From Candidatus Microgenomates bacterium (lineage in GTDB: Bacteria > Patescibacteriota > Microgenomatia > Daviesbacterales > UBA10151), in contig JACOYE010000011.1 of NCBI GenBank assembly GCA_016182045.1, positions 39 through 64,038 of the forward strand: a stretch of DNA of 64,000 nt, in the 5' to 3' direction. This document shows, one piece after another, positions 18,628 to 60,781 of this stretch. Positions within the stretch are counted from its first letter, which is position 1. The number at the start of each line of letters is the position of its first letter. Made by a program: the position numbers and the translations under genes. The notes beneath the pieces were generated by a model. It ran no database searches. It was not told where the DNA came from and saw nothing but the letters and a program-made list of their open reading frames with translations.

Positions 18628-19770
18628 ATGTCAGCCATGTTTGAGCGAAGAATAAAAATATTAAAGCAACATTTAAAAAGAGAAAAATTGGATGGAGTTT
18701 TAATCTCATCTGTTCCTAATATTACATATCTGACCGGCTATTCCAATTTTTTTAAAGAGGAAAGAGATGGTTATCTTTTAATAACCAAAGATAGAAATTA
18801 TATTTTAACTCACTCTATTTACAGTAAGGCTATAAATATCTCAAATTTTAAAGTAGTTGAAATAAGTCGTAGGGAACCGCCTGCAAAAGTAATGCAGAAA
18901 ATCTTAAAAAATAATGATGCATATATTGGAATTGAAGAACATGATTTAAGGGTTTATGAGTATAAGAAATTAGTTTTTGTTTTTAAAAATCTGAAAAACT
19001 TTGACCTAAAAATAAAAAGATCTATTAAGGATAAAGATGAGATTGAATTAATTTCCAAAGCATGTCAGATTGGTGATAAAGTTTTTAAAAAAGCAGTAAC
19101 AAAAATTAAATTAGGAATTTCTGAAAAGAAACTTGCTTTTGCAATAGATAATGTAATTAAAAAATTGGGTTATGAACCTTCCTTTAAAATTATTATTGCA
19201 TTTGGTAAAAATGCAGCATATCCTCATCATGAATCAGGAAAAGATAGGTTAAGAAAAAATCAGTTTGTTTTAATGGACTTTGGTGTAAAGTTTGAAAATT
19301 ATTGTTCTGATATGACTAGAACTGTCTTTTTTGGTAAACCTAATAAGAAACAAATAAAAATGTATGAGACAGTACTGAGGGCCCAACAAAAGAGTGTAGA
19401 TTCCATAAATGAAAGCATTAAAAAAGGCAAGAAAATTTTGGCTAGAGATATTGATAATGTGGCAAGAGAGTACATAGAGTCAAAAGGTTTTCCAACTATT
19501 CCACATTCCTTGGGCCATGGGATTGGACTTGAGGTACATGAGCATCCGAGCCTTTCTTCAAAAAGCAAAGATTTCTTAAAAGAGGGGATGGTTTTTTCTA
19601 TAGAACCAGGAATTTATATTCCAGGTTTTGGCTCGCCTCGCTCGACTCGTCTCGCGACGAAGCGGACGCGAGTCGAAGCGGGCGGAGTAAGGATTGAGGA
19701 TTTATATTTATTTACAAATAAGGGTTTAAAACAAATTACCACTTCCCCTAAAAGTCTAATCGAGTTATAA
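18628..19770 (+). CDS. M24 family Xaa-Pro aminopeptidase/prolidase (start moved to internal Met)
   Basis: The metal-ligand motifs DFGVKFENYCSDMTRT, HGIGLEVHE and GVRIEDLYLFT are present. The earlier ORF-track start would overlap sbcD. The gene contains an in-frame GC-rich palindromic insert (SPRSTRLATKRTRVEA). Confidence 0.8.
   Translation: MSAMFERRIKILKQHLKREKLDGVLISSVPNITYLTGYSNFFKEERDGYLLITKDRNYILTHSIYSKAINISNFKVVEISRREPPAKVMQKILKNNDAYIGIEEHDLRVYEYKKLVFVFKNLKNFDLKIKRSIKDKDEIELISKACQIGDKVFKKAVTKIKLGISEKKLAFAIDNVIKKLGYEPSFKIIIAFGKNAAYPHHESGKDRLRKNQFVLMDFGVKFENYCSDMTRTVFFGKPNKKQIKMYETVLRAQQKSVDSINESIKKGKKILARDIDNVAREYIESKGFPTIPHSLGHGIGLEVHEHPSLSSKSKDFLKEGMVFSIEPGIYIPGFGSPRSTRLATKRTRVEAGGVRIEDLYLFTNKGLKQITTSPKSLIEL
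19630..19686. repeat. GC-rich palindromic element (family 1: ctcgcctcgct...gcgggcgg), inserted in-frame in the M24 peptidase gene
   Basis: ggctcgcctcgctcgactcgtctcgcgacgaagcggacgcgagtcgaagcgggcggag. It interrupts the conserved PG-GGVRIED block. Internal inverted repeats tcgactcg/cgagtcga. Confidence 0.6.
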
Positions 19771-19774
19771 TATT

Positions 19775-20401
19775 TTGTTTCTTGCTATGGATAAATGGAC
19801 GAAGTTAACAACTAAAGAAACTATCAATAAAACCATAGAGGCCTTAAAGGCCAATGGGATAGAGGCACATTTTGTAGAAAATGGTAAGAAGGCCAAAGAG
19901 TTGGCTTTAGAATTAATTCCTGAGGGTAGTGAGGTGATGACGATGAGTTCAACTACCTTAGACACCATCAATTTGTCTGAAGAGGTAAATAAAGAGGGAA
20001 GCAAATTTAAACCAGTCAGAGACAAACTTTATTCCATGGATCCAACCACTCAATTGCAGGAAATGAATCGTTTGGGGGCAGCACCCCAATATACTTTGGG
20101 AAGTGTTCATGCAGTCACAGAAGAGGGACAAGTTTTAATTGCCTCAAATTCCGGCAGCCAGCTACCTGCTTATGCATATGGTGCATTGCATGTAATTTGG
20201 GTAGTAGGGGCACAAAAAATTGTGAAAAATATTTCGGAGGGAATAAAGAGGATTTATGAACACTCCTTTCCTTTAGAAGATGAAAGAGCCAGTAAGGCTT
20301 ATGGAATTGGCAGTGGAGTCAATAAAATTTTAATTATTAATAAGGAAAAACAAATAGGAAGAATTACTTTGATTTTTGTTAATGAAAAATTAGGTTTTTA
20401 A
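19775..20401 (+). CDS. LUD-domain protein (LutC/YkgG-like)
   Basis: MDKWTKL...IEAHFVENGKKA...QVLIASNSGSQLP resembles the LUD/DUF162 fold. Moderate confidence. Confidence 0.5.
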   Translation: MFLAMDKWTKLTTKETINKTIEALKANGIEAHFVENGKKAKELALELIPEGSEVMTMSSTTLDTINLSEEVNKEGSKFKPVRDKLYSMDPTTQLQEMNRLGAAPQYTLGSVHAVTEEGQVLIASNSGSQLPAYAYGALHVIWVVGAQKIVKNISEGIKRIYEHSFPLEDERASKAYGIGSGVNKILIINKEKQIGRITLIFVNEKLGF

Positions 20402-20952: not shown

Positions 20953-20982
20953 TTGTTAAATATTAGCTTAATTTTCAAGTAC

Positions 20983-21011
20983 CAATTTACAATTTCCAAT
21001 CAAATATCAAT
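20983..21011. repeat. AT-rich intergenic repeat, copy 1 (aatttacaatttccaatcaaatatcaatg)
   Basis: 27/29 identical to 61846-61874. Both are followed by cattg/caatg/ttgaaaat-rich low-complexity sequence. Confidence 0.5.
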
Positions 21012-21079
21012 GATTAAATTTTCAAAACATTGATAAATTGAAAATTCATTGAAAATTGAGAATTAAAAATTGAAAAATT

Positions 21080-22132
21080 TCATTTTCCGAATAATCTTAA
21101 CAGAAAAACCTTTAGTGGAGTCAATTTGTCTATGGCAGTAAAAGCCAAATATAGTGGCCAATTAAAAACCAAATCATATGTTCCGATATATTCCACAAGT
21201 TCCCCACCATATCCCTGTTTAAACTTATGAAATCCATACCAGGGATCAGATTCTTTGGCATCGGGCCCTAATGCTCCCCACACGTCAAATTTCTTAAGGC
21301 CTAATTTTTTACCAAGTTTGATTGCTTGCCAAGCCACTAAATTTGAAGCCATCACATTTTTATATTCTAAAGATGAGCCGCCATAAGGATAATAAAGAGT
21401 ATCTTTGAAATTTAAAAGCATCCAGGCAGTGATCGGATGTCGGATGTCAGAGTTCGGAAGTCGGTAGAAAGCAATCAACAGCCTCGCCATGTTAACCTTC
21501 TTTAATGTTTCCCAGACCTTTTGATGATACTCTTTATTATGTCCATGATAACCTTGGCGTTTGGTGGTTTCAAAATAAAGTTTTAGATAAATTTCAAAAG
21601 CCTCATCATCTGTTCTTTCTTGAATTTCCACCCCATTTCTTTGGGCAATTTTAATGTTATATCTGGTTTTTGGGTGCATATTTTTTAAAAGTTCTTCTTC
21701 GGATTTGGTTAGATCAATTATGAAATTATATTTGGTGAATAAAGGCTTGGGAGAGGGTAAAAGATCTCTGGCCATTTTTTTTAATTGGATCCCTGCTCGC
21801 TTCGCGAAGCGAGCCTTCGCAGGGACGACGTCTGGTTCTACTTTTATGAAAGCACAATTATATTCTTTGCCAAGTTTTTTCAAAGCCTCTGCTAAATCCT
21901 TATTTGGAAAAGGACCTTTTGGTAAATAGCCAACATACTGACTGGTGAAAGGAATCTTGTGCAGAGTTAGTTGGAAGGCTTTTTGTAGTTTTCCATTTTT
22001 GTAAAGACCATAGCGCAAAAGTGGAATCCCCAAGGATTTTCGAAACTTCCCCCATTCCCAGGATTGAATGACATGGGTAACTAATTTGTCATATTGAGAT
22101 CTTTGTTTATCTGTAATTGGTCGAAGGTCCAC
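21080..22132 (-). CDS. FemAB-family peptidoglycan interpeptide-bridge aminoacyltransferase-like protein
   Basis: Its length, the N-terminal WEWGKFRKSLG and the C-terminal NLVAWQAIKLGKKLGLKKFDVWG resemble the FemABX family. It contains an in-frame GC-rich palindrome. Confidence 0.6.
   Translation of the reverse strand: MDLRPITDKQRSQYDKLVTHVIQSWEWGKFRKSLGIPLLRYGLYKNGKLQKAFQLTLHKIPFTSQYVGYLPKGPFPNKDLAEALKKLGKEYNCAFIKVEPDVVPAKARFAKRAGIQLKKMARDLLPSPKPLFTKYNFIIDLTKSEEELLKNMHPKTRYNIKIAQRNGVEIQERTDDEAFEIYLKLYFETTKRQGYHGHNKEYHQKVWETLKKVNMARLLIAFYRLPNSDIRHPITAWMLLNFKDTLYYPYGGSSLEYKNVMASNLVAWQAIKLGKKLGLKKFDVWGALGPDAKESDPWYGFHKFKQGYGGELVEYIGTYDLVFNWPLYLAFTAIDKLTPLKVFLLRLFGK
21791..21826. repeat. GC-rich palindromic element inserted in-frame in the FemAB-like gene (ccctgctcgcttcgcgaagcgagccttcgcaggg)
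   Basis: Contains the 20-bp perfect palindrome gctcgcttcgcgaagcgagc flanked by ccctgc/gcaggg. Confidence 0.6.
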
Positions 22133-23833: not shown

Positions 23834-24526
23834 TTAGAGAAGGTATATATCTACAAATTTTGCCCTCCAGCCTGCTGTTTTGGCATCGTCAAAGCCTAAG
23901 TCGATGATATTTCCTTTGATGGCTCCGCCTGTATCTCCTGCTATGGCTTGTCCGTATCCTGGGATATAAAGTTTAGATCTTAATGGTATTACTTTTGGAT
24001 CTACTGCAATTACACCTTTTCCAGCTTTTAGTCCTATGGCTGTTGTTTCATTACAACCTGGACAATGGGAATCATAGTGAGTAGCATAAACTCGCATCTT
24101 TTTCCAATAGCTAATTTGTCCATCAGGAGTATCTAAAGTTTTCCAGACGATTTTGGTGCCTCTTAAAATTTTTTTATCTTTTGGCTGAGTTGTCTCAACT
24201 GACACAATCTCCCTATCATATTCTTCACCATAATGGAAAGTAATTTTAATAATCTTTACTTGTTTACCATCCTCTCCTTCGTCAATAACTTTTTCTATCC
24301 CCGCTTCTTCTTCCGGATCATCTTCATAAATTACTTTCTTTAAGATAGTTTCTATTTCTTCTTCTAATTTTTCAGTAAATGAGGACTGGGTAGTAACAGG
24401 TTGGTTAATTGGTAGTGTTTCAGTTGGAGAGGGAGTGGAGTCTCCCAGAATTGTCGGAGATTGCCAAAAATTTTTGGCAAAAAAGGTGAGCCCTATTATT
24501 AGTAAGATCCCTAAGTATCTTTCCAT
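23834..24526 (-). CDS. G5 + 3D domain cell-wall protein (YabE/MltA 3D-domain family)
   Basis: AVDPKVIPLRSKLYIPGYGQAIAGDTGGAIKGNIIDLGFDD contains the three conserved Asp of the 3D domain. G5-like KITFHYGEEYDREIVSVETTQP lies upstream. Confidence 0.7.
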   Translation of the reverse strand: MERYLGILLIIGLTFFAKNFWQSPTILGDSTPSPTETLPINQPVTTQSSFTEKLEEEIETILKKVIYEDDPEEEAGIEKVIDEGEDGKQVKIIKITFHYGEEYDREIVSVETTQPKDKKILRGTKIVWKTLDTPDGQISYWKKMRVYATHYDSHCPGCNETTAIGLKAGKGVIAVDPKVIPLRSKLYIPGYGQAIAGDTGGAIKGNIIDLGFDDAKTAGWRAKFVDIYLL

Positions 24527-24560
24527 CCTTCGACTCCCTTCGGTCGCTCAGGACAAGTGG
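24527..24560. repeat. GC-rich palindromic element, family 2 (ccttcgactcc...gtcgctcagga), intergenic between helicase stop and 3D-gene start
   Basis: ccatccttcgactcccttcggtcgctcaggacaag. Same termini as copies at 40825, 41443, 42261, 42853 and 56343. Confidence 0.5.
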
Positions 24561-26552
24561 TCATACATTTAACCATTCTTCCTCATCAACTCCAGTATCC
24601 GTATCATCCAAGAATTGATCTGAATCTTTAAAAGTAGCATTTGATGAGATTAAGTGCTCAGGGATATCAGACAAGAAACGGGAAACCAGATTATTAGATC
24701 TTGTGCCAAAATATAATCTTTGTCTGGTATATGTTAAATATAACTTTTCCTTGGCCCGAGTAATCCCCACATAACAAAGCCTTCTTTCTTCCTCCAGTTC
24801 ATTAACATCAAGCATGGATCTAGAATGAGGGAACAATCCCTCCTCCATGCCTACTATAAAAACAACAGGAAACTCTAAACCTTTGGCAGAATGTAGGGTC
24901 ATTAAGGTTACTACATCTTGAGCTTGATTATTGGGGATGTTAGGGCGGCTAGGTAAATAGCCATTTTCCACCAAAGCTACATTTTCTAAAAAGTCTACTA
25001 AATTGGGAAATTCTTCTGCCACAGATCGAAGTTCTTTGACATTTTCCACCCGTCCCTTTCCTTCTTCAGTGCCATCATCTAAATATGTCAAGTAGCCTGT
25101 GACTTGTAGGATTTTATCCAGAAGCTCCATAGTGGTGTAACCACTTTCGTCATTGCGAGGAGACGTAGTCGACGAAGCAATCTCATTAACAAGATTGCCA
25201 CGCGAACTTCGTTCGCTCGCAATGACGTTTTGCAACTCCATTATTTTTGCAAGTCTGCCCTTACCAATTTTTTCTGCCCGCTTTAAGGAAACAGAATCTT
25301 TGGGATTTTGTAAAAGTCTTAAATAGGCAAGAACATCTTTAATTTCTTTTCTTTGATAAAAACTGACTCCACCGACTAATCTGTAAGGGACGCCCGATTT
25401 TAAAAATTGTTCCTCCAAAGACCTTGATTGGGCGTTAGTACGGTAGAGGATAGCAAAATCTGATAGCGGTTTGTTGTCATTGCGAGGAGACGTAGTCGAC
25501 GTGGCAATCTTTATTTTTGAGCCAGATTGCTTCGCTTCGCTCGCAATGACGTTTAAAATGAATAAAGTTTCCGCTACCTCATTTCTTACTTCCACCACTT
25601 CTATTTTTTCTCCTCCATCTTTTTGAGTCCAAAGTTTTAAAATTGGATGAGATTTATTTTTGGAAATAACAGCATGAGCTGCATCCAGGATGTTTTGAGT
25701 AGATCTATAATTTTGTTCAAGATTAAAAATTTTGGCATTGGGATAGTCTTTTTCAAAATTGACTATATTTCTAAAATCAGCTCCTCGGAATGAATATATG
25801 GACTGGCTTGCATCACCTACTACGCAAATGTTTTTATGACGGTTAGCCAAATATTTAGAAATTAAATATTGGGCAGGATTGGTATCCTGATATTCATCGA
25901 TTAAGATATATTTAAATTGGATTTGATATCTGGTTAAAATGGCTGGTTCTGTTTGAAAAAGCTGGATCACTTTTAATAGCAGATCATCAAAATCCAAAGC
26001 ATGATTTTTTTCCAAAATTTTCTGATATTCCAGATAAATTTTGGCCACAAGTTCCTGGAAAAAACCTCTGGCATATTGAGGATATTCTAAAGAAGAAATT
26101 AATTCATTTTTGGCCCCGGAGATGGTGGCCCGAACTGCAGAAGGGGAGGTTTTTTGAGTTGGAATATTTAAATTACCCATGGCTTCTTTGATAGCATCCA
26201 AAGCATCGGATTCATCATAAATAGCAAAGCCGGGAGGAAGCCCTAGCACTTTGCCTTCACGACGCAAGATTTTGGCACAGAAAGAATGGAATGTGCCCAT
26301 CACTGGTTGGGTGGGAAGATCGCCAATTAATTTTTTAATTCGCTCAATCATCTCTCCGCTGGCCTTATTTGTAAAAGTTAATACAAGTATATTTTCAGGT
26401 GGAATTTTCTTCTCAGAAATTAAGTAAGCCACTCTGTAGGTGAGTACTCTGGTTTTTCCAGAACCAGCTCCGGCTAAAATTAAAACTGGGCCTTCAGTTT
26501 GTTTGACAGCTTTTTGTTGAGCGGGATTTAGATCATCTAGGAGAGCAGACAT
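24561..26552 (-). CDS. UvrD/PcrA/Rep-family superfamily-1 DNA helicase (start moved to ATG at 26552, MSALLDDLNPAQ)
   Basis: LLDDLNPAQQ, Walker A GAGSGKT and motifs through TLHSAKGLEFPVVF...RRLCYVGITRAK. It carries two in-frame MITE-like inserts. Confidence 0.9.
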   Translation of the reverse strand: MSALLDDLNPAQQKAVKQTEGPVLILAGAGSGKTRVLTYRVAYLISEKKIPPENILVLTFTNKASGEMIERIKKLIGDLPTQPVMGTFHSFCAKILRREGKVLGLPPGFAIYDESDALDAIKEAMGNLNIPTQKTSPSAVRATISGAKNELISSLEYPQYARGFFQELVAKIYLEYQKILEKNHALDFDDLLLKVIQLFQTEPAILTRYQIQFKYILIDEYQDTNPAQYLISKYLANRHKNICVVGDASQSIYSFRGADFRNIVNFEKDYPNAKIFNLEQNYRSTQNILDAAHAVISKNKSHPILKLWTQKDGGEKIEVVEVRNEVAETLFILNVIASEAKQSGSKIKIATSTTSPRNDNKPLSDFAILYRTNAQSRSLEEQFLKSGVPYRLVGGVSFYQRKEIKDVLAYLRLLQNPKDSVSLKRAEKIGKGRLAKIMELQNVIASERSSRGNLVNEIASSTTSPRNDESGYTTMELLDKILQVTGYLTYLDDGTEEGKGRVENVKELRSVAEEFPNLVDFLENVALVENGYLPSRPNIPNNQAQDVVTLMTLHSAKGLEFPVVFIVGMEEGLFPHSRSMLDVNELEEERRLCYVGITRAKEKLYLTYTRQRLYFGTRSNNLVSRFLSDIPEHLISSNATFKDSDQFLDDTDTGVDEEEWLNV
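25149..25226 (-). mobile_element. 78-bp MITE-like palindromic element with 12-bp terminal inverted repeats (gtcattgcgag...ctcgcaatgac), in-frame in the helicase gene
   Basis: 78 bp = 26 codons, translated as VIASERSSRGNLVNEIASSTTSPRND. A second copy lies 337 bp away. Confidence 0.5.
25486..25560 (-). mobile_element. 75-bp second copy of the MITE-like element, in-frame in the helicase gene
   Basis: 75 bp = 25 codons, translated as VIASEAKQSGSKIKIATSTTSPRND. The first 26 nt and last 13 nt are identical to copy 1, and it has the nested gcaatct/agattgc inverted repeat. Confidence 0.5.
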
Positions 26553-26588: not shown

Positions 26589-26619
26589 AGTTTGTAAGAT
26601 TTCAGTTAAAATTTAGGTA
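26589..26619 (+). repeat. Direct repeat DR-A copy 1 (agtttgtaagatttcagttaaaatttaggta, 31 bp)
   Basis: Perfect identity with 27602-27632. Together the copies bracket the GC-rich segment. Confidence 0.9.
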
Positions 26620-26917
26620 AATTTTCAATGTTTGGAGGCTAAAGTATTGAAAAATATGTTAAAATATCATTGAAATCTTATGCCAGAAAGGATAAGGATC
26701 GTATTTCTACCTTCAGGACTACTCCGATAGAGGTAAATTACGAGCTATCAACACGGAAACAGAAGCACCAAAGCAGCCGCCGATAGAACGTTTAAAACGA
26801 CTCTTAGTAGGGTGGGCAAGGCGTGGTCGCACAGGGACAGAAGCAAATCCAGAACAACAGATATTAACTCCTGTCCGTCTTAAAGACTATCTTCTACAAG
26901 CAGCAAAAAGCCCATCG

Positions 26918-27556
26918 TTGGCAGTTAATCCCATGCCTAAAGTTTTTGACCTTGGGGAATTTGGAAGAGAAGCAGAAAGATTATTGCACCTATCCCTGAG
27001 AGATCCTAAACACCCGGAGTATGCCTCAATAGCTTGCATTAACGATAAAGGTCGGCTCGTCATCTTAAAGGAACCCATCCGAGGTGATGAGAGGAGCGTT
27101 CCGGTTCCCGCCCCCAAGGATAAACGCAGGGTCCTTTTGCTACATACCCACGGTGACACTGATACTCCTTTCTCCGCAAGTGATTTAGAGGGCTTATTTG
27201 TGCCCTCAGCCGAGAATGGGGTTCCAGCCGTGCTTCTCGCCACTCCGAGTCTGAAAATGCTGATTCTTCGCACCAAAGATACTCCCTATCTCACGCCGCT
27301 TCAAATTGAAGATAGGACTGTGATGATGTGGCTCCACCCAGCTACGGAAGAGGAGAGAAAACTATTCGAAGCTGGTTATCAGGCAGCGGGCGGTGAAGAA
27401 GCCGATAGGCCACCAGAGCTTACTCCAGAGTATAAGCAAGCCCTTCGTCAGCTCAGCAGCAAGCGAATGTTCGTGCTCACCCGCGCTGCCCATGAGTATA
27501 ATCTCAAAGGCTACTCTTGCCCATCTAACCAGAATATTGTGTCACTTCTCAGCTAA
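26918..27556 (+). CDS. JAB/MPN (JAMM) metalloprotease-domain protein on a GC-rich foreign segment, probably 5-prime truncated
   Basis: LLLHTHGDTDTPFSASDL is a perfect HxHx7SxxD JAMM/RadC-like motif, with an upstream Glu in ILKEPIRGDE. The frame is open from 26696 (74 codons upstream of the TTG start) with no start codon. GC is roughly 50% by eye against AT-rich flanks. Confidence 0.5.
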   Translation: MAVNPMPKVFDLGEFGREAERLLHLSLRDPKHPEYASIACINDKGRLVILKEPIRGDERSVPVPAPKDKRRVLLLHTHGDTDTPFSASDLEGLFVPSAENGVPAVLLATPSLKMLILRTKDTPYLTPLQIEDRTVMMWLHPATEEERKLFEAGYQAAGGEEADRPPELTPEYKQALRQLSSKRMFVLTRAAHEYNLKGYSCPSNQNIVSLLS

Positions 27557-27601
27557 CCCGCATCTTTAGTGGCGAGCCAGAAAATGGTGGGGTCACTTCC
27601 C

Positions 27602-27632
27602 AGTTTGTAAGATTTCAGTTAAAATTTAGGTA
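27602..27632 (+). repeat. Direct repeat DR-A copy 2
   Basis: Identical 31-mer to 26589-26619. It abuts DR-B copy 1. Confidence 0.9.
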
Positions 27633-27633
27633 G

Positions 27634-27653
27634 TTTTCCCCTAGACAATTTTT
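27634..27653 (+). repeat. Direct repeat DR-B copy 1 (ttttcccctagacaattttt, 20 bp)
   Basis: Identical 20-mer at 28540-28559. The copies bracket the two-gene NTase cassette. Confidence 0.8.
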
Positions 27654-27679: not shown

Positions 27680-27943
27680 ATGTATAACTGGTCTGTTGAT
27701 GAAAAAAGGTTTAAAAAGGAAAACCCTAAAGAGTATAGACTGTGGAGGTTGGTGCAGCTGATAAACTATGGACTGGATGGAGAAAAACTGGATAGGGAGG
27801 AGGTCAAAAAAGCCTGGCCGAAGATTAAAGATCAGCTTGATCCATATAAGGCTAGGGCAATAGAATATTTATTATGGGGAAAGCTATACTCACTCCCGAA
27901 CAACTTAACTTTCTGGAATTTATCCAAAAAGAACAACAAATAA
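27680..27943 (+). CDS. Small hypothetical protein upstream of and overlapping the NTase gene (candidate partner/antitoxin)
   Basis: 87-aa ORF. It overlaps the next ORF by 70 nt in another frame. No family recognised. Confidence 0.3.
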   Translation: MYNWSVDEKRFKKENPKEYRLWRLVQLINYGLDGEKLDREEVKKAWPKIKDQLDPYKARAIEYLLWGKLYSLPNNLTFWNLSKKNNK

Positions 27944-28539
27944 CCAAACGCTTTTATTGGACCGGCGGAACAGTTCTTTCTGAATTCTACCTGCAACACA
28001 GACTTTCGGAAGATATAGATTTATTCAATGAATTTGAGGAGGTAAATCAGAGTTTAATAGATGCTTTCTTAAAAAAGATTTCACCTTCACTTCAAGTAAC
28101 AGAGATTAAGAAAAGTCAGTTTTTAGGTTTAGTGAGTTATATCTTGGTTTTTAAAAATAGTCAGAAACTAAAAATAGATTTTAATTATTATCCATTTCCT
28201 AGAATTGAAAAAGGCAAGAAATATAAAAATTTAGAGATAGACAGTATTTATGATATTGCTGTAAATAAAGTGCATACTATGTTTATGCGGACAAAAGCCA
28301 GGGATTTTGTTGACATTTATTTCATCATGAAAACAATTGATTATCATTTAGATCAGCTCATCAGGGACGCGAAGGTTAAGTTTGACTGGCATATTGATAA
28401 AGTTACTTTGGCCAGTCAATTTATGAAAGTCAAAGAAATTAAAGATTTACCTAAAATGTTGTTACCATTTAATCAAAAAGATATGGAAAAATTTTATCTA
28501 AAGCTGGCTAAATCTTTAGAAGAAGAGATCTTAAAATAA
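27874..28539 (+). CDS. Pol-beta-superfamily nucleotidyltransferase, AbiEii/DUF1814-like (abortive-infection / type IV TA toxin family)
   Basis: YWTGGTVLSEFYLQHRLSEDIDLF matches the GG...S.DhD NTase motif and AbiEii N-terminal architecture. 221 aa. Confidence 0.55.
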   Translation: MGKAILTPEQLNFLEFIQKEQQITKRFYWTGGTVLSEFYLQHRLSEDIDLFNEFEEVNQSLIDAFLKKISPSLQVTEIKKSQFLGLVSYILVFKNSQKLKIDFNYYPFPRIEKGKKYKNLEIDSIYDIAVNKVHTMFMRTKARDFVDIYFIMKTIDYHLDQLIRDAKVKFDWHIDKVTLASQFMKVKEIKDLPKMLLPFNQKDMEKFYLKLAKSLEEEILK

Positions 28540-31677: not shown

Positions 31678-32679
31678 TTACAATTGAGGAAGGATGCCAC
31701 CCCGTCTTTCAATCTCTTGGGCTATCAGATCTAAATCTTTCTGATCAACTACTCCGTCAGAGTTTATATCAGCCCTTTTTTCTTGAGGATTTTTACTCGC
31801 CTCGCTGCCAGCCTCGCGGCTAGGCGGGCGAAGCGGGCCAAAATTTTTAAGTACTATGGCGTGATCATTAGCATTAATCTGTCCATCATTGTTTAGATCG
31901 AACTTATTTAAATCCTCAGCAGTCACCGGTTCAGTTAGATCTAAGTTTTGTCCTAATTTCAAGGGTGGTAAGATCTGGCCTGAAATTGTCAGTTTAAAAA
32001 TAGCGCTGGCCTCACCTTTATCAGAGACAACAGTTAATTTGCCGATTTCTTCTCCGTTAGGTTGATAAGTTCCTGATAAATCCGATTTGTTTATTTTAGA
32101 GAGTGGTATCAAAAAATTACCTCCAGTTTTGACCAGAGCGGATTGAGGAGAAGTACCTGAGATGGTCAGATAAACAATGCCATCATCCAAGGGAATTTCT
32201 CCATCCAAGACAGTTCCGATCACTGGGTTAAGGTTAACAAGAGAGGTGGCAGATTTGGCAGTATTAAACTGGAAAGTTTCAGACTTATGCTTGCCTGAGA
32301 CAATTTTTAAAACATACCTAGTTTGGGGTTGGAGATTTTTGAGGGTGACATAATGAGTCGGACGGGCTTTTGGTCCCGCACCATCTGGTGCGGGATTGCT
32401 GTCTCTGTCATCTAAAACTGCCTGCTCATTAGGCGATGTCAGGCCAAATGTGATAAAAGAGGGTGCGGCTTGAGATGTTTGCCAAGACACTACTACCGAT
32501 TGATCCTCAATGTTGGTAAAAATAACATCGTCTTTTTTAGGAACAATTTGTGGCGATGCTTGAGTGGAAAAAATTGCCTCCTCCTTCGCTACCAAATATA
32601 CACCCGCTACTGTTCCTGCAATAATGATGCCTAATCCTAAAAGAGTTGGTATCTTAAATTTATTAAAAAATGAAGTCAT
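31678..32679 (-). CDS. Secreted protein with Ig/Fn3-like beta-rich region and two C-terminal dockerin-type Ca-binding repeats
   Basis: DLNNDGQINANDHAIVL and DINSDGVVDQKDLDLIA match the dockerin DxNxDGxIn motif. TM/signal anchor. It contains an in-frame GC-rich element (PLRPPSREAGSEAS). Confidence 0.5.
   Translation of the reverse strand: MTSFFNKFKIPTLLGLGIIIAGTVAGVYLVAKEEAIFSTQASPQIVPKKDDVIFTNIEDQSVVVSWQTSQAAPSFITFGLTSPNEQAVLDDRDSNPAPDGAGPKARPTHYVTLKNLQPQTRYVLKIVSGKHKSETFQFNTAKSATSLVNLNPVIGTVLDGEIPLDDGIVYLTISGTSPQSALVKTGGNFLIPLSKINKSDLSGTYQPNGEEIGKLTVVSDKGEASAIFKLTISGQILPPLKLGQNLDLTEPVTAEDLNKFDLNNDGQINANDHAIVLKNFGPLRPPSREAGSEASKNPQEKRADINSDGVVDQKDLDLIAQEIERRGGILPQL
31795..31839. repeat. GC-rich palindromic element, family 1, in-frame in the dockerin-protein gene
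   Basis: actcgcctcgctgccagcctcgcggctaggcgggcgaagcgggcc. Shares termini ctcgcctcgct / gcgggcgaagcggg with the copies at 19630, 46431 and 60549. Confidence 0.55.
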
Positions 32680-42260: not shown

Positions 42261-42297
42261 GATCCCTCGACTCGCTTCGCTCGCTCGGGATGACAAA
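42261..42297. repeat. GC-rich palindromic element, family 2 variant, intergenic hrcA-grpE
   Basis: gatccctcgactcgcttcgctcgctcgggatgacaaa. Confidence 0.55.
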
Positions 42298-42326
42298 ATG
42301 CGTTAGGAAATTGTACGCATTTTGTC
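42292..42326. promoter_or_regulatory. Perfect 11-bp inverted repeat gacaaaatgcg-N13-cgcattttgtc, 14 nt upstream of the grpE ATG
   Basis: Read directly. No U-tract follows, so it is not a canonical terminator. Confidence 0.5.
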
Positions 42327-42339
42327 AAATCGGCTTAAT

Positions 42340-42891: not shown

Positions 42892-42924
42892 AAAATTGTA
42901 ATTTGTTTGTCAAATAGCAAATAT

Positions 42925-45622: not shown

Positions 45623-46600
45623 ATGACAAAGCGTGATTATTATGAAATTTTAGGCGTTAATAAATCCGCATCTGCTGATGAAATAAAATCAGCTTACAGG
45701 AAACTGGCTAGAAAACATCACCCTGATGTAGATAAATCTGCCGGGGCTGCAGAAAGATTTAAAGAAGTGGGTGAGGCTTATCAAGTTTTATCTGATCCTC
45801 AGAAAAAAGGAGCTTATGATCAGTTTGGCCATTCCGCCTTCGCCCCTGGAGGGGGCTTTGGCGGACAAGGCTGGCCAGGTGGTGGACCATTCGGTGGCCA
45901 AGGGGGTTGGAAAACATATAGTTGGTCCTCGGGTGGTGAAAACCCAAATATCCAGTTTGATTTTGGAGGGTTTGAGGATCCATTTGAGCTGTTTGAACAA
46001 ATTTTTGGTAGTGCCGGATTTGGCGGTTTCACCAGAAGAAGACCAACTTATCAGATGGAGCTAAGTTTTGACGAATCCATACATGGGGTGACCAAAGATA
46101 TTGAGGTGGAATCAAGAAATCAACAAGGAACATTAGTTAGGAAAAGAATGAGAATTAAAGTTCCACCGGGAGTGGATAATGGGACTAAGATGAGATTTGG
46201 TCCGTCAGCTGACGGATTGGATATTGTTTTTAGAATTTCTCGTCATCCCCAATTTTTAAGAGAAGGAGCAGATATTTTTTCGGAAATAACCATCAATATT
46301 CCCCAGTTAGTCTTGGGAGATGTGTTTGAAGTGGAAACTGTGGGAGGGAAAGTAAAAGTTAAGGTGCCGCCAGGCACCCAACCTGGTTCTTTGGTTAAAC
46401 TAAAAGGCAAAGGCGCTCCCAAATTAGGTGGCCACGGCCCGCTTCGCCCGCGAAGCGAGGCGAGCCACGGTGATCATTATGTCAGGGTTAACCTAGAAAT
46501 CCCCAAAAATCCTTCTAAGCAAGAGAAACAACTATATGAGGAGTTATATAATTTATCTTTCCCGCCTGGCGGGGCAAGCAAGAAAAAAGGCTGGTTTTAA
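45623..46600 (+). CDS. dnaJ: DnaJ-family co-chaperone without zinc-finger domain (class B-like)
   Basis: J domain [11 protein letters not shown], Gly/Phe-rich linker, C-terminal substrate-binding domains. No CxxCxGxG repeats. It contains an in-frame GC-rich element ([14 protein letters not shown]). Confidence 0.9.
46431..46471. repeat. GC-rich palindromic element, family 1 (reverse orientation), in-frame in dnaJ
   Basis: gccacggcccgcttcgcccgcgaagcgaggcgagccacgg. Its reverse complement ggctcgcctcgcttcgcgggcgaagcggg nearly equals the copy in pnp at 60549. Confidence 0.55.
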
Positions 46601-50727: not shown

Positions 50728-50730
50728 ATT

Positions 50731-51981
50731 ATGGCTCAGGCACGAACAGAGTTCGCAGCTGCTTTAAATCAAATAGCCTCTGAAAAAGGGGTGGATGTGG
50801 AGGTGGTTTTGGATGCCATCCGTCAGGCTGCCTTGGCTGCCTATAAAAAAGATCTAGTATTAAGAAATGAAATTGTGCCTGATGATTTTGAAGAATTTAC
50901 CTCTGAAGTTAACCCTGTCAGTGGGGAAATAACCATCTTACATAAAGATAAAAATGTCACCCCTTCGGGTTTCGCCAGAATAGCCGCCTCAATTGCCAAA
51001 CAAGTGATTATGCAACGGCTTAATGAGGCTGAAAGAGGTGCTATACTCTCAGAATACTCAAATAAAGTTGGCACAGTGATATCCGGGTCTATCCAAAGAC
51101 AGGAAGGTTCAACCTTCTTTGTTGATTTGGGAAGAGCCGAGGGAGTATTACCTCCTTCCGAACAAGTTCACACAGAAATTTACAGCCAAAATCAAAGGAT
51201 GAAATTTTATGTCAAAGAAATAAGAGAAGGCGGGCGGGGTTCGGAGGTGATTGTTTCCAGGTCTGATCCAAATTTGGTTAAGGCTCTATTTGCTTTAGAA
51301 GTGCCGGAAATTCAATCAGGAGCAGTTGAAGTGAAAGTGATTGCCAGAGAGGCTGGTTCAAGAACTAAAATTGCAGCTGTCTCAACCCAAGAAGGTGTTG
51401 ATCCTGTTGGGTCTCTGGTTGGACAAAAAGGAGTCAGGGTTCAAGCTGTAATGAGTGAGTTGGGGGAGGAAAAGATTGATATTATCAGCTATTCGGATGA
51501 TCCAGCCAGATTTATAGCTGCAGCGCTATCTCCTGCCAAAGATATTCAGGTTAAATTAAATGAGGCTGACAAGGTGGTAACCGTGATCGTTCCTTCATCT
51601 CAATTATCTCTGGCCATTGGGAAAGGTGGACAAAATGTCAGATTGGCTGCCAAATTGACTGGATGGAAAATAGATATAGTGGGAGCTGAGGAACCCGCCT
51701 CCGCTGACTCGGCCTCCGTAGCCACTTCGGCGAAGGAAGCAGCTACGGCGGGCAAGCCAGCAGCTGAAGCTGTGGAAGAAAAAGCTGAGGGTGAAATTGA
51801 GACTGTGGGTACTGGAGAAAGGAAAGAGAGGCCTGGTACTGCGCCAGCTCCAGCTCAGGCTACATCAGATGATCCAAAAGCTGCTCAAGATATTGAAAAA
51901 GATAAGAAATCCGCCGACGCTAAAGCTATGGCGGACAAGAAAGCTGATAAAAAGAGTAAAGCCAGTAAAGAATCTAAGTAA
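50731..51981 (+). CDS. nusA: Transcription termination/antitermination factor NusA with long Ala/Lys/Glu-rich C-terminal tail
   Basis: NusA N-terminal domain, S1 and two KH domains (LAIGKGGQNVRLAAKLTGWKIDI). Confidence 0.9.
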   Translation: MAQARTEFAAALNQIASEKGVDVEVVLDAIRQAALAAYKKDLVLRNEIVPDDFEEFTSEVNPVSGEITILHKDKNVTPSGFARIAASIAKQVIMQRLNEAERGAILSEYSNKVGTVISGSIQRQEGSTFFVDLGRAEGVLPPSEQVHTEIYSQNQRMKFYVKEIREGGRGSEVIVSRSDPNLVKALFALEVPEIQSGAVEVKVIAREAGSRTKIAAVSTQEGVDPVGSLVGQKGVRVQAVMSELGEEKIDIISYSDDPARFIAAALSPAKDIQVKLNEADKVVTVIVPSSQLSLAIGKGGQNVRLAAKLTGWKIDIVGAEEPASADSASVATSAKEAATAGKPAAEAVEEKAEGEIETVGTGERKERPGTAPAPAQATSDDPKAAQDIEKDKKSADAKAMADKKADKKSKASKESK

Positions 51982-55595: not shown

Positions 55596-56675
55596 GTGAA
55601 ATACGATAGTCAAATTAGTGAGCTTAAAAATTTACTGCCTACTGCTAAATCTGTTTTGATTGCCCTGCCTGTTGGAGCTGACATAGATAAATTGGCAGCA
55701 GCCCTTGCATTATTTTTAGTGCTTGAAGCGTCTGGTAAAGAAGTAACAGTTGTTTCTGATGATACCATTACCGTGGGTCAATCACATCTTTTCGGAGTAG
55801 ATCATATCTCAAAAAATCTTCCCTCTGGTCAAGGTGGTAATTTAACCTTAACTTTAGAGGGGGTAGCCTCCTCAAATGGTACCATTCCAGCCTTGGAAAA
55901 ATTGGATTGGTATGCCCAAAATAATAATTTAAATTTGGTTTTCCATGTTATTGCAGGTCAAATGTTTCGACCCTCAAGAATTGTGTCACATTATCAAGGC
56001 AGTGGTTTTAATTTAAATTTTGTGGTGGGAGCAGCCAATTTGGACAGCTTAGGCTCAATTTATAAGCAAAACTCCGACAGTTTTTCCGGTGTACATATTG
56101 TCAATATTGATAATCAAGGCAATACCGGCTTTGGTACTACCAATATTTTGGATACCAATGCCTCATCTATATCTGACATAATGGCTAATTTAATTATTGA
56201 TCTTGGTTTGAACTTGGATGCAGATGCTGCCTCAAACCTTTTAACAGGAATTTTTGATGCTACCAACAATTTATCGGATCCAAGAATTTCTGCAGATACA
56301 TATATGGTGGTGGCTAACTTATTAAGAGCAGGAGGGAAAAAGCCCTTCGACTCCAGTTCGGCTTCGCTCACTGCAGGCGCTCAGGGCAGGCCAGCCACAC
56401 CACAAGCTCCCCGGCCAGATTTATCTGCTTTGATTCCACCAGAACTTCCGTTGGTCAGTGAGATGTCAACACAACCAGTGGCTGAATTCACCCCGATCCC
56501 GATAGAATCGGGACCGATTGAATCGGGGTTCACCACCCCACCTGTGGTGTCCCAACCAGCCGGGAATAATCGACCCTCTCCTGAGGAAAGACCTGTACAG
56601 GAGGGTGTAGTCTCCGAAACCATTGAACCGGAATGGCTAACCCCCAAAATCTTTAAAGGTACATCACTGGGGTAA
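55596..56675 (+). CDS. DHH-superfamily (NrnA-like) protein with degenerate catalytic motifs and Pro-rich C-terminal tail
   Basis: NrnA-like N-terminus (SVLIALPVGADIDKLAAALAL) but DHH reduced to DHI and no GGGH. It contains an in-frame family 2 GC-rich element. Confidence 0.4.
   Translation: MKYDSQISELKNLLPTAKSVLIALPVGADIDKLAAALALFLVLEASGKEVTVVSDDTITVGQSHLFGVDHISKNLPSGQGGNLTLTLEGVASSNGTIPALEKLDWYAQNNNLNLVFHVIAGQMFRPSRIVSHYQGSGFNLNFVVGAANLDSLGSIYKQNSDSFSGVHIVNIDNQGNTGFGTTNILDTNASSISDIMANLIIDLGLNLDADAASNLLTGIFDATNNLSDPRISADTYMVVANLLRAGGKKPFDSSSASLTAGAQGRPATPQAPRPDLSALIPPELPLVSEMSTQPVAEFTPIPIESGPIESGFTTPPVVSQPAGNNRPSPEERPVQEGVVSETIEPEWLTPKIFKGTSLG
56343..56388. repeat. GC-rich palindromic element, family 2-like, in-frame in the DHH-like gene
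   Basis: cccttcgactccagttcggcttcgctcactgcaggcgctcaggg. Confidence 0.5.
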
Positions 56676-58378: not shown

Positions 58379-58399
58379 CAGTTATCATCAAAAGCGAGT

Positions 58400-60781
58400 A
58401 TGAACAAAGTTATTACAAAAGAGATAGATCTAAATGGTCGCAAGTTGAAACTTGAAACTGGCAAATTGGCTTTGCAAGCTGATGCTTCAGTAGTGGTATC
58501 TTGGGGCGAAACAGTAATTTTGGCAACTGTGGCTACCCAGCCTCAAAAAGAAGATATTGGTTATTTTCCATTATCTGTTGAATATGTGGAAAAACACTAT
58601 GCCGGCGGAAGAATTTCCTCTTCCAGATTTATTAAAAGAGAAAGTAAACCCACTGATGAGGCTATCTTGACTGGTAGATTGATTGATCGCTCTATCCGTC
58701 CACTTTTCCCCAAAGATTTTAAAAATCAGGAAGTACAGGTGATTTTAACTGTTTTATCAGTTGATCAAAACAATGATCCTGATATTGTCGGTTTGATTGG
58801 AGCCTCTGCTGCACTTTCCATCTCCTCAGTGCCTTGGAGCGGACCAATTGCTGCTATCAGAGTGGGTGAGCGGGATGGCAATTTGGTGGTAGATCCCACC
58901 ATAGATCAGATGGAACATCTTAACATGGATCTTATAGTCGCTTCAACCAAAGACAAGGTGGTAATGATAGAAAGTGAAGCTAAACAAACTTCAGATGAGG
59001 TGATTTTTTCAGGCATCAAGGAAGCCCATGCTCAAGTCCAGCCGATCATTGAGCTGATAGAGCAGTTTAGTAACCAAGCAGGCAGAGAGAAGCAAACCTA
59101 TTCTCATTTGGTGGAAGAGGTGGAAGAGGCACTGCTTTTGGAGGTGAAAAAGATCACTAAGGAAAGAATTGAGGCTGCACTTTTTGACAATGAACATCCT
59201 TGGCATGAGGCAACTGGTGATTTGATCAAAAAAGAATTGGCTCTTCAATATGCAGAAACTTTAACTCCTCAGATAATTTCCGGAATTTTTGATAAGGTAG
59301 CCAAAGAAATCTTGCACGAGGCAGTTCTTAAAAAAGGTAAAAGAGTTGATGGCAGGGCCATGGATGAGATTAGGCATTTGGAGATGGAAGTAGGAATTTT
59401 ACCAAGAACTCATGGATCTGCTCTTTTTCAGCGGGGTGACACACAAATTTTGTCTGTGGTAACCTTAGGCGCTCCATCCTTGCAACAAACTTTGGAGGGG
59501 ATGGAAGGTGAGAGGCAAAAAAGATTTATGCATCATTACAATATGAGTATCAATCCTTTTTCTGTGGGTGAGGTTAAAAGGTTGGGTCCTCCAAATCGAC
59601 GTGATATCGGTCATGGATCTTTGGTGGAAAAAGGTTTAAATGCGGTGATTCCTTCCGAGGATAAGTTTCCCTATGCCATCAGAGTGGTATCAGAAGTCTT
59701 GGCAGCCAATGCTTCCACCTCAATGGCCGCTCTTTGTGGATCAACCTTGGCATTACTTGATGCCGGTGTACCTTTGTCAGAATCTGTGGCAGGAATTGCC
59801 TTGGGACTTTTGACTGATGGTGATAAATGGCAGGTCATTACCGATATGAGGGCTGTAGAGGACTTTTACGGTGATATGGATTTTAAGGTGGCAGGTACTA
59901 AAAATGGAGTGACAACAATTCAGATGGATACTAAACTTGACGGATTAACTTTTGAGATTATTGAGAAAGCACTGGAAATGGGTAAAAAGGCCAGGCTAGA
60001 AATCTTAGAACAGATGAATAAAGTAATAGCGGCTGCTGGTCCTTTATCTCCTCATGCTCCCAGAGTGGAGATATTACATATAAAACCAGAAGAGATTGGT
60101 TTGCTAATTGGGCCTGGAGGTAAAAATATTAATGGCATAATTTCCAAAACTGGAGCACAGATTGATATTGAGGATGATGGGACTGTGATGGTTTCTGGGA
60201 CCAACTCGGAAGGGGTGGATAAGGCAATTGCCTCAATTGAAGGCATGTTTAAACAAGTCAATGTAGGGGATGAGTTTTTAGGCAAGGTGGTCAGAATTGC
60301 TCCTTTTGGAGCTTTTGTGGAGATTGCTCCTGGAAAAGACGGATTGGTTCATATTTCCCAGATGGCTCCAGGACATGTGGAAAGACCAGAGGATGTGGTG
60401 ACTGAGGGGCAAGAAGTGAAGGTGAGGGTAACTGATGTTTCTCCAGAAGGAAAAATTGGCTTATCCATGCTTTTTGGAGCAGACGTAAAAAAGGAATCTG
60501 AAAGCAGGCCTAGAAGTAGTAGTTTTAGACCAAGACCTTCATTTGGAAACTCGCCTCGCTTCGCGGGCGGAGCGGGTAGATCAAGATCATCAGGTGGTGG
60601 GTATAGATCGGGAGGGGGCAGACGGGATTTTGGTGTAAGTGAGAGAAGAGGGCCTTTTGATAGAACCAGGGCCAGATTTGAAAGAAAACCATTTGGAGCA
60701 AGAGGTGGGGGAAGACCTGCCCGCCGAAGCGGTTTTGGCGAAGGCGGGGATAGAGGTGGACGTGGTGGCTTCAATAGATGA
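58400..60781 (+). CDS. pnp: Polynucleotide phosphorylase with Arg/Gly-rich C-terminal tail
   Basis: Two RNase PH domains, KH (LIGPGGKNINGI), S1, then an RGG-rich ~100 aa tail. Confidence 0.95.
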   Translation: MNKVITKEIDLNGRKLKLETGKLALQADASVVVSWGETVILATVATQPQKEDIGYFPLSVEYVEKHYAGGRISSSRFIKRESKPTDEAILTGRLIDRSIRPLFPKDFKNQEVQVILTVLSVDQNNDPDIVGLIGASAALSISSVPWSGPIAAIRVGERDGNLVVDPTIDQMEHLNMDLIVASTKDKVVMIESEAKQTSDEVIFSGIKEAHAQVQPIIELIEQFSNQAGREKQTYSHLVEEVEEALLLEVKKITKERIEAALFDNEHPWHEATGDLIKKELALQYAETLTPQIISGIFDKVAKEILHEAVLKKGKRVDGRAMDEIRHLEMEVGILPRTHGSALFQRGDTQILSVVTLGAPSLQQTLEGMEGERQKRFMHHYNMSINPFSVGEVKRLGPPNRRDIGHGSLVEKGLNAVIPSEDKFPYAIRVVSEVLAANASTSMAALCGSTLALLDAGVPLSESVAGIALGLLTDGDKWQVITDMRAVEDFYGDMDFKVAGTKNGVTTIQMDTKLDGLTFEIIEKALEMGKKARLEILEQMNKVIAAAGPLSPHAPRVEILHIKPEEIGLLIGPGGKNINGIISKTGAQIDIEDDGTVMVSGTNSEGVDKAIASIEGMFKQVNVGDEFLGKVVRIAPFGAFVEIAPGKDGLVHISQMAPGHVERPEDVVTEGQEVKVRVTDVSPEGKIGLSMLFGADVKKESESRPRSSSFRPRPSFGNSPRFAGGAGRSRSSGGGYRSGGGRRDFGVSERRGPFDRTRARFERKPFGARGGGRPARRSGFGEGGDRGGRGGFNR
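60549..60576. repeat. GC-rich element, family 1, within the pnp tail
   Basis: actcgcctcgcttcgcgggcggagcggg. Confidence 0.5.

Follow-up and report, generated by a model that had tools for sequence, protein, structure and literature searches.

Palindromic repeats lying in frame within the housekeeping genes of a small AT-rich genome were reportedly described in Rickettsia by Ogata et al. in 2000. One of these Rickettsia palindromic elements (RPEs), RPE-1, is ~100–150 bp long and confined to that genus. The SDR4–6 repeats of Nostoc, the 'very small mobile repeated elements' of Elhai et al. in 2008, are said to be 21–27-nt hairpins that insert without target duplication, are often nested in other repeats and occupy sites that are filled in some relatives and empty in others. 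The GC clusters of yeast and other fungal mitochondria are likewise GC-rich palindromic mini-elements of an AT-rich compact genome and occasionally lie in frame within coding regions. Here we analyse a 64,000-nt stretch of DNA (the window) from a Candidatus Microgenomates bacterium (assembly GCA_016182045.1, contig JACOYE010000011.1, positions 39–64,038), which holds at least 17 very short GC-rich hairpin repeats, most of them in frame within essential genes. Our sequence comparisons show that these elements are lineage-specific insertions.

The closest described system is the CGTC-tagged superfamily of repetitive extragenic palindromes (REPs) defined by Di Nocera, De Gregorio and Rocco in 2013, which includes Rickettsia RPE-4 and RPE-6 and Neisseria dRS3, spans several phyla, often lies within genes (UvrD and other repair genes among them) and frequently forms head-to-head dimers; no transposase was found for the group in that survey (PMC3733652). 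Its units have an unpaired CGTC (variants TGTC and CCTC), an 8–9-bp stem starting with A-T, a 4–5-nt loop and a short unpaired 3′ tail with the consensus CCA (PMC3733652). In-frame intragenic CGTC and GTAG REPs, as well as RPEs, are thus already known (PMC3733652; PMC3184786). The window's elements share with REPs and REPINs mobilized by REP-associated tyrosine transposases (RAYTs) the short GC-rich hairpins, an unpaired 5′ tetranucleotide, dimers and the lack of target-site duplication (PMC3116915; PMC6006769). They differ in their tags (CGTC, TGTC or absent, not GTAG or GTGG), in the lack of a RAYT gene in the window and of strand bias, and in being near-identical across phyla, whereas REPs have been described as species-specific; Rickettsiales have few or no Y1 genes (PMC6006769).

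Like RPEs, the window's elements are palindromic repeats in frame in housekeeping genes, at permissive positions where they are tolerated as extra peptides, but their units are 25–80 nt long, GC-rich, nested and common to many phyla. Going by the reported description, they resemble the Nostoc SDRs in the size of a recurrent 27-mer, in their precise junctions, in nesting and in filled and empty sites, and differ in host phylum, in sequence and in that in-frame occupation of core genes dominates in the window. The mitochondrial GC clusters, which are organellar and unrelated in sequence, provide an analogy only. An initial annotation of the window, made from its sequence alone, had taken such elements to be undescribed for bacteria of this kind, and our literature survey agrees, having yielded no description of in-frame palindromic repeats in bacteria of the candidate phyla radiation (CPR) nor of these sequences.

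Short hairpin repeats in a compact genome

The window has a G+C content of 38% and is ~92% coding and ~8% non-coding. The host is a Microgenomates/Daviesbacteria-like CPR bacterium; in a homology search, its LepA was 100% identical to a protein of a Candidatus Microgenomates bacterium, and the next best matches (72–79% identity) belong mostly to Candidatus Daviesbacteria. Pfam confirms the genes that house the elements (M24 aminopeptidase, FemAB, UvrD, a dockerin/fn3 protein, LepA, an NAD-kinase-like protein, HrcA, GrpE, DnaJ and PNPase) and also recognises NusA and IF2. The copies, which belong to two main families, a third family and related units, are as follows.

10516–10538: 10-bp perfect hairpin adjoining the family-2 copy at the TatD 3′ end
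10535–10559, plus strand: family-2 copy TCATCCTGAGTGGAGTCGAAGGATC at the TatD 3′ end, supplying the last codons and the stop codon
~11234–11253, minus strand: family-2-like minimal unit GCCCTGAGCGGAGTCGAAGGG inside TatD, encoding LSGVEG
19632–19682, plus strand: 51-nt family-1 composite in the M24 aminopeptidase gene, encoding (G)SPRSTRLATKRTRVEA
21786–21832, minus strand: CGTC-1-like REP in the FemAB gene, encoding VVPAK[ARFAKR]AGIQ
24525–24554, minus strand: family-2 copy in the spacer between uvrD and a G5/3D gene
25148–25227: head-to-head dimer of CGTC-tagged hairpins (CGTCATTGCGAG...GCAATCT) in UvrD, encoding NVIASERSSRGNL..IASSTTSPRNDE
25476–25551: second dimer in UvrD, of (C/T)GTC-tagged hairpins, encoding VIASEAKQS..TSPRNDN
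31796–31837, plus strand: 42-nt family-1 element with a nested loop hairpin, on the antisense strand of the dockerin/fn3 gene, encoding PLRPPSREAGSEAS
32374–32395: third-family element TCCCGCACCATCTGGTGCGGGA in the same dockerin gene, encoding NPAPDGAG
36608–36643, plus strand: 36-nt double-hairpin insert (ATVERGRDVRRP) in LepA, in the linker between the G domain and domain II
40824–40869, minus strand: family-2 element in the NAD kinase-like gene, holding a nested 9-bp hairpin and encoding SHPERLRRHVGGVEGS
41443–41472, minus strand: family-2 copy between the CIRCE operator/promoter and the hrcA start codon
42261–42294, minus strand: family-2 copy with a TGTC tag in the hrcA–grpE spacer
42853–42879, minus strand: family-2 copy with a TGTC tag in the last codons of grpE
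46201–46216: 16-nt perfect palindrome TCCGTCAGCTGACGGA (PSAD) in dnaJ
46438–46464, minus strand: family-1 minimal 27-mer in dnaJ, encoding GPLRPRSEA
51679–51775, plus strand: possible nested GC palindrome in the variable C-terminal linker of NusA
56343–56386, minus strand: family-2 variant with a CCC/GGG stem and a nested unit, in the open reading frame (ORF) at 55596–56675, encoding PFDSSSASLTAGAQG
60550–60576, plus strand: family-1 27-mer of the GGAG variant, downstream of the S1 domain in the RG-rich tail at the PNPase C-terminus, encoding SPRFAGGAG

Element motifs are enriched 6- to 40-fold relative to shuffled sequence. Measured against dinucleotide shuffles of the window, CCYGAGCG occurs 8 times (0.64 expected; six of the eight matches are family-2 copies), GTCATNNNGAG 9 times (1.07 expected) and GCGAAGC 12 times (2.0 expected), and CTCGCCTCGCT, with one mismatch allowed, occurs 6 times (0.14 expected), the four exact matches being the family-1 copies. 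Perfect GC-rich hairpins number 10, against 1.8 ± 1.3 in the shuffles.

All 14 elements of the initial annotation are real and present as placed (12 coordinates and two helicase copies carry the described sequences), although its list was incomplete, as it lacked both TatD copies, the second dockerin copy at 32374–32395 and the dnaJ micro-palindromes, of which there are two beyond the listed dnaJ copy. The motifs that it took to be shared within families are borne out by the counts above, and the hrcA copy that it assigned to the leader does sit in the 5′ untranslated region (UTR). Two of its measurements needed correction: the helicase copies, given as 75 and 78 bp, are palindromes of 80 and 76 nt with a net gain of 23 and 21 codons over the closest orthologue, and the M24 element, given as starting at 19630, comprises 51 nt from 19632 to 19682. 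The ORF at 55596–56675 has no Pfam match. Insertion could not be shown for the GC-rich NusA stretch or for the internal TatD copy, the status of the latter being uncertain because the net length is unchanged relative to the orthologue.

Precise insertions at permissive positions

We aligned orthologues of LepA (n = 120), M24 peptidase (n = 119) and DnaJ (n = 120), and built codon alignments with three syntenic relatives (L001, L003 and L127/L128), of which L127/L128 is the closest, with proteins 58–88% identical to those of the window. Sites that are filled in the window are empty in this closest relative for M24 (exactly 17 codons), for both dimers of UvrD, for both copies in the dockerin gene and for LepA, NadK and DnaJ, and in the best-resolved cases the absence is exact to the boundaries. 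The NAD kinase-like insert is missing from all three relatives, and L128 also lacks the 16-nt dnaJ palindrome. The proposal that host proteins carry extra peptides (for example GSPRSTRLATKR) at positions where homologues are contiguous is therefore upheld by both the orthologue and the codon alignments.

Insert lengths are precise (27, 36, 42 or 51 nt), and when no more than the 42 nt of the dockerin element or the 27-mer of dnaJ is removed in silico, the orthologue length and local sequence are restored, the dockerin gene without its element reading FG-K-NP. No target-site duplication was detected at the dockerin, dnaJ and M24 junctions, unlike in miniature inverted-repeat transposable elements, of which such a duplication and terminal inverted repeats of a parent insertion sequence (IS) are expected. 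Two candidate duplications were rejected: the 5–7-nt one at dnaJ, since the flanking CAYGG repeat is already present in empty sites, and an AT-rich one at the dockerin gene, on comparison with empty sites.

The ATVERGRDVRRP insert of LepA (36 nt) is unique among the 120 orthologues, and the same few LepA loops hold other inserts elsewhere (VIPANAGIQ..DPRLRGDD, VIPTEDEGRVEGS..SARNDES, VILSEAKN, VIARSETTWQS and GPLRPP..RLRPRSE). The LepA of relative L001 houses a third-family element too (DPAPSGAG), and the FemAB and LepA loops are occupied by different element families in different species. In the AlphaFold model of the M24 protein (mean predicted local distance difference test score, pLDDT, of 91), residues 356–371, which correspond to the insert, form the sole segment below 50; in the LepA model, residues 184–206, in the linker between the G domain and domain II, and a second segment near the C-terminus (557–581) fall below 50. 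The models, which were built on the orthologue alignments and are otherwise confident, thus place the M24 and LepA inserts in low-confidence, predicted disordered loops, the LepA one lying in an inter-domain linker.

Eleven copies lie within intact ORFs, as annotated, and the downstream frame is kept in all eleven, an outcome with a chance probability of ~(1/3 × 0.8)^11. The frame is kept although the commonest unit lengths elsewhere are 25, 26, 30 and 34 nt, which speaks for translation of the inserts and against their removal by splicing. The further observation that the reading frame continues through the elements is partly trivial: 81% of all frames through them lack a stop codon, and an open frame alone is therefore weak evidence.

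Occupancy of the M24, dnaJ and grpE sites

At the M24 site, a family-1 insert is present in 19 of the 119 orthologues, at exactly GF|G...A|GG, in at least seven length variants that include 27 nt (GSPRFAGEA), 30 nt (GSPRSTRVEA) and the 51 nt of the window. Carriers are scattered on a neighbour-joining tree; the window is the sole carrier in its own clade, and the nearest relative has an empty site. The DNA of the 51-nt insert, in which two more hairpins are nested in the loop, is 96–98% identical to that of two orthologues whose proteins are only 57–60% identical to that of the window, whereas the flanking coding DNA is 63–72% identical; synonymous sites are conserved within the insert and saturated in the flanks, and no recombination patch is visible around it. 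The identical insert was recovered from assemblies in four collections (NCBI, Logan, ENA and JGI).

At the dnaJ site, 7 of the 120 orthologues carry the 27-mer, four in one orientation (GPLRPRSEA) and three in the other (SPRFAGEA or SPRSAGGA), and in L186 the insertion bond is the same as in the window's dnaJ with the element reversed. The 16-nt dnaJ palindrome reads TCCGTCAGCTGACGGA in the window and TCCGCCAGCTGGCGGA in L003, a compensatory pair. The grpE 3′ end carries 1–4 tagged units in all three genomes compared, in the orientation opposite to that of the window. These patterns could reflect repeated site-selective insertion, lateral spread of filled alleles through conserved flanks, or in-place flip-flop of imperfect palindromes.

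The same peptide does occur in other lineages' orthologues at the M24 and DnaJ sites, which the initial annotation had named as a sign that the segments are not insertions. An ancestral segment is nonetheless disfavoured by the DNA, because the insert is far more similar than its flanks, its carriers are scattered and the element occurs in both orientations at one dnaJ site.

Both alignments contain further small inserts at fixed sites in many Daviesbacteria orthologues: PAGRQG(I/M) (7 aa, 7 sequences) and SSSGR/LRSGR (11 sequences) in M24, and PFGSAQGG (13 sequences, G/F region) and SPPGGEA (19 sequences, C-terminus) in DnaJ. These probably represent additional mini-palindrome families. The deposited M24 protein begins 25 codons upstream of the conserved MFERRI start (18565–18639); this N-terminal extension, MNIRKMQEFHGTRDFIIVHATMS, is found again in several orthologues and runs over the start of SbcD, which is transcribed divergently, and the annotated start is probably too early.

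Architecture of the element families

Family 1 is defined by CTCGCCTCGCT, common to all four copies, and by a right end ...AAGCGGG; GCGGGCGRAGCGGG is found in three of the four, the M24 copy having a nested hairpin instead. Its minimal unit is an untagged 27-mer, CTCGCCTCGCT-TC-GCGGGCGRAGCGGG, which forms an imperfect 10-bp stem with variable central bases able to house additional hairpins, the dockerin 42-mer and the M24 51-mer being copies enlarged in this way. A strand-specific G·U hairpin was considered for this family and rejected, as pairing by eye gives one wobble and one mismatch on each strand.

All six listed copies of family 2 share CCYGAGCG ... TCGNAGG. The UvrD, NadK, hrcA–grpE and grpE 3′ copies follow one architecture, (C/T)GTC-AT-NNN-GAG...(A)AG-N′N′N′-AT-C, within which a three-base stem segment covaries (TGC/GCA, CCT/AGG and CCC/GGG; TCT/AGA in other genomes). 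The stems of tagged units start with AT (ATTGC/GCAAT, ATCCT/AGGAT, ATCCC/GGGAT) and comprise 5 contiguous bp followed by a GAG/A(AG) internal loop. The tag is CGTC in three UvrD units and the FemAB copy, TGTC in the copies at 42261 and 42853 and in one further UvrD unit, and AGTC in the NadK copy; it is degraded in the copies at 24525, 41443 and 56343 and absent from family 1. Loops span 7–30 nt, often with nested hairpins, and elements sit within the loops of other elements, giving composites. The 3′ tail is ATCT in UvrD and family-2 units and ATCCA in the FemAB copy only. The GTCAT/CCYGAG strand lies on the minus strand in seven of eight family-2 units whatever the orientation of the gene, the exception being 10535–10559; the plus strand is G-rich throughout the window, and eight units are too few to call a replication-linked bias.

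These features agree with those of CGTC-tagged REPs in the unpaired CGTC/TGTC tag, the A-T stem start, the head-to-head dimers, the copies across phyla, the in-frame intragenic positions (including UvrD) and the lack of a known dedicated transposase. The encoded peptides are also alike: VVPAK..AGIQ of the FemAB copy compares with the published VIPAKAGI, and the LepA of another Daviesbacterium has VIPANAGIQ..DPRLRGDD. The differences lie in the CPR host, in stems of 5 bp plus a GAG/AAG internal loop rather than 8–9 contiguous bp, in loops of 7–30 nt rather than 4–5 nt, in a tail that is mostly CT rather than CCA, and in family 1, which has no tag. The FemAB copy, GA-CGTC-GTCCCTGC-GAAG-[nested GCTCGCTTCGCGAAGCGA]-GCAGGGAT-CCA, appears to be an almost canonical CGTC-1 unit (CGTC, an 8-bp stem with G·T at position 1, a GAAG loop and a CCA tail), the GAAG loop arising only once the nested 18-nt hairpin is removed. 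The other tagged copies depart from the pattern in loop length and tail, and we therefore treat them as relatives and not as members of CGTC-1 to CGTC-4.

The comparison with RPEs made in the initial annotation is apt, as several copies have the CGTC/TGTC tag and AT-starting stem of the group that includes RPE-4 and RPE-6; the link is one of architecture. The families are likewise RPE/REP-like as a set, but our data do not show that the 'superfamily' named in the annotation is a single one by common descent.

Distribution in other phyla and viral contigs

A scan for the 27-mer with one genome per species matched at least 120 stretches, and the element is nearly unchanged in at least 43 low- to mid-GC loci, which include several Patescibacteria classes, Omnitrophota, Planctomycetota (Pirellulales and Sedimentisphaerales), Nitrospira and 36%-GC 'Gammaproteobacteria' metagenome-assembled genomes. 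Contexts are unrelated; a long ORF spans the copy in about half of the 43 loci listed, and the 27-mer is read in four frames in other genomes, with LASLRGRSG among the products. Matches in high-GC genomes, with random gap lengths and no trailing CGGG, were set aside as chance. Family-1 units are also nested, in other phyla, in the loops of GTCATTGCGAG...GCAAT and GTCATGCTGAGC... units.

The 27-mer had zero matches in viral contigs. Family 2 (GTCATCCTGAGCGA...GAAGGATC) was found in 56 IMG/VR viral contigs with 47–69% GC, with up to seven co-oriented copies per 14 kb; most frequent there are the 25-mer GTCATCCTGAGCGAAGCGAAGGATC and a 34-mer identical to the window copy at 24525 except for two bases, the AT that the window copy lacks. 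In one contig (L149, IMGVR_UViG_3300031555_011079), seven co-oriented 34/36-mers occur in 14 kb with conserved flanks (ACCNCCGCACCT-...-TTCGCACNGAAA) around each unit, so that in this contig a longer repeat includes family 2. Judged by these sequence matches, the families are pan-bacterial and not lineage-specific.

Neighbouring sequence features

Upstream of hrcA, a CIRCE-like operator at 41407–41443 (TTAGCACTC-N9-TACTGCTAG) overlaps a TTGACA/TATCTT promoter and is kept in four genomes. The family-2 unit abuts its last base, creating a structured ~35-nt 5′ UTR, whereas hrcA is nearly leaderless in the relatives, where the ATG overlaps the operator end or comes at most ~12 nt later. AT-rich inverted repeats, TGACAAA(N6)-N9-(N6)TTTGTCA, closely precede the start codons of grpE and dnaK (42291–42327 and 42876–42912), with interiors that differ compensatorily. 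These inverted repeats, which could act as an operator, attenuator or terminator, are part of a duplicated ~70-nt leader (42281–42349 and 42866–42934; 72% identical) that starts inside the family-2 unit.

A ~1-kb segment with 43% GC (26589–27637) is bounded by 36-bp direct repeats that are 94% identical (26589–26624 and 27602–27637) and carries a DUF4329 ORF (26918–27556), followed by an AbiEii toxin gene (27874–28539). A tblastn search of relative L128 gave no counterpart between uvrD and the thioredoxin gene, and the segment resembles an independent insertion of larger size. An AT-rich intergenic repeat of ~70–110 nt (AATTTTCAA..TTTACAATTT..ATCAATG) occurs at 20970–21091 and 61820–61902, 76–79% identical in direct and inverted register, and a similar string lies beside a 27-mer copy in L034. 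In relative L001 a diversity-generating retroelement (bAvd gene and reverse transcriptase) lies between lepA and hrcA at 14421–15805, and L003 has an intein-containing thioredoxin-like gene at 1–957, neither of which is present in the window.

Discussion

We propose that the elements are probably selfish, non-autonomous hairpin repeats of the REP/RPE/SDR type, copied through DNA by something encoded elsewhere and then filtered by selection. Units of 25–80 nt, CGTC/TGTC-tagged in some families and an untagged 27-mer in one, would be copied at the DNA level and inserted into new sites without target-site duplication, frequently into the loop of a resident hairpin, which would produce 'Russian-doll' composites, and at times repeatedly at the identical nucleotide position. 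Because the genome is ~92% coding, most insertions hit genes, and selection would retain those inserts that are a multiple of three in length, stop-free (easily achieved by GC-rich DNA) and located in permissive loops, linkers or tails, where they would be translated as disordered extra peptides. Precise insertion, location in modelled loops, nesting, cross-phylum spread and patchy occupancy are all seen here; active mobility, an enzyme acting in trans and translation are what we infer.

Several results weigh against this proposal. No transposase or Y1_Tnp domain was found by Pfam among the 40 window ORFs, and ORF clustering revealed no gene recurring beside the 27-mer in the 43 loci listed. 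The orientation of 47 family-1 copies is unbiased (27:20 relative to GC skew and 21:26 relative to the coding strand), and lagging-strand single-stranded DNA transposition of the IS200/RAYT type is therefore unsupported; together with the absence of GTAG and of a Y1 gene in the window and with the cross-phylum conservation, this is evidence against the classical RAYT/IS200 route. In a metagenome scan, the 51-nt M24 composite occurred only in M24 genes and is therefore a site-bound allele, not a dispersed copy, and the idea of a dispersed multi-copy element was dropped. The nearest LepA is 79% identical, so that the comparisons lie above strain level. Finally, the initial description of the copies as hairpin-forming holds for the enrichment of perfect GC-rich hairpins but not for the minimal 27–34-nt units, which fold no better than shuffled GC-rich sequence (z = −0.6 to −1.9), with significant values only for the dimer in UvrD (z = −6.3) and the copy in LepA (z = −4.3).

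A broader view, which we advance tentatively, is that these units belong to a pan-bacterial class of 25–34-nt 'nano-hairpin' elements (for example CTCGCCTCGCTTCGCGGGCGAAGCGGG and GTCATCCTGAGCGAAGCGAAGGATC) whose sequence is held nearly constant across phyla and in phage-like contigs by a widespread, unrecognised trans-acting machinery. Such a machinery would insert units with precision and no target duplication, choosing defined bonds and the loops of copies already present, and may place or flip them either way at one site; CPR bacteria, with almost no intergenic space, would tolerate them inside core proteins.

The main rival, which we regard as unlikely, invokes no dedicated mobile element: copies would arise by template-switching or microhomology copying, templated from other hairpins or other species' alleles, and by short-patch homologous recombination after DNA uptake, with flip-flop, and with quasi-palindrome correction keeping the palindromes. 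Precise junctions without target-site duplication, the occupation of the dnaJ site in both orientations, the inversion of the grpE 3′ unit between genomes and the compensatory change that keeps the 16-nt dnaJ palindrome would all be expected under such a process, as would the lack of a transposase or linked gene. The M24 composite is restricted to the M24 site, within the most conserved motif-coding DNA, whose near-identical flanks of ~25–35 nt could support interspecies recombination, although the lack of a recombination patch around the insert speaks against this. Template-switching also leaves unexplained the near-identical 25–34-mers in unrelated genes, many phyla and viral contigs, and the conserved unpaired CGTC/TGTC tag with GAG...AAG and the covarying stem triplet, which resemble a recognition site.

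It is improbable that the elements are kept for a function, whether as terminators, mRNA stabilisers, attenuators, protein-binding or supercoiling sites or useful surface loops. The ~8% of non-coding DNA holds 3–4 of the 15 catalogued copies, the spot at the grpE 3′ end upstream of dnaK is occupied in each of the three genomes compared, the DNA of inserts is more conserved than coding requires, and REPs are known to act as RNA or DNA elements (PMC3733652). A functional role is possible for the intergenic and 3′-end copies; for the intragenic copies it is unlikely because the same DNA is read in different frames. Moreover, the elements occur in both orientations relative to transcription, in unrelated host genes and positions, and are missing in close relatives; their peptides are modelled as disordered and vary with the frame of reading, and a search of the whole window against Rfam at gathering thresholds gave zero matches. 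That the segments are ancestral or ordinary low-complexity protein parts, or assembly artefacts, is very improbable and already contradicted: the same peptide recurs in several orthologues at the M24 and DnaJ sites, and NusA, the PNPase tail and the DnaJ G/F region are naturally GC- and Gly-rich, but most orthologues, including the closest relative, lack the segments, insert synonymous sites are conserved against saturated flanks, four collections agree on the M24 insert, and the frame in which the same DNA is read changes from gene to gene.

How REP, RPE and CGTC-type palindromes spread, and why they are alike across distant phyla, are standing questions on which these insertions bear. In Daviesbacteria-like genomes the insertions are dense, patchy and readily aligned and lie in genes that are conserved universally, and the filled and empty sites, the two orientations and the 27/30/51-nt M24 series provide material for inferring target rules, rates of gain and loss and candidate enzymes. 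The cross-phylum near-identity, the loop-in-loop growth, the occupation of one site in both orientations and the tolerance of core proteins are worth following. The elements also lengthen and distort the protein sequences of CPR bacteria: spurious peptides that recur, PLRPRSEAS for example, enter protein databases, and lineage-specific 'signature inserts' could mislead phylogeny and structure prediction. If the broader view of a pan-bacterial class is correct, CPR genomes would be a natural laboratory for the movement of tag-bearing REP/RPE/CGTC repeats.

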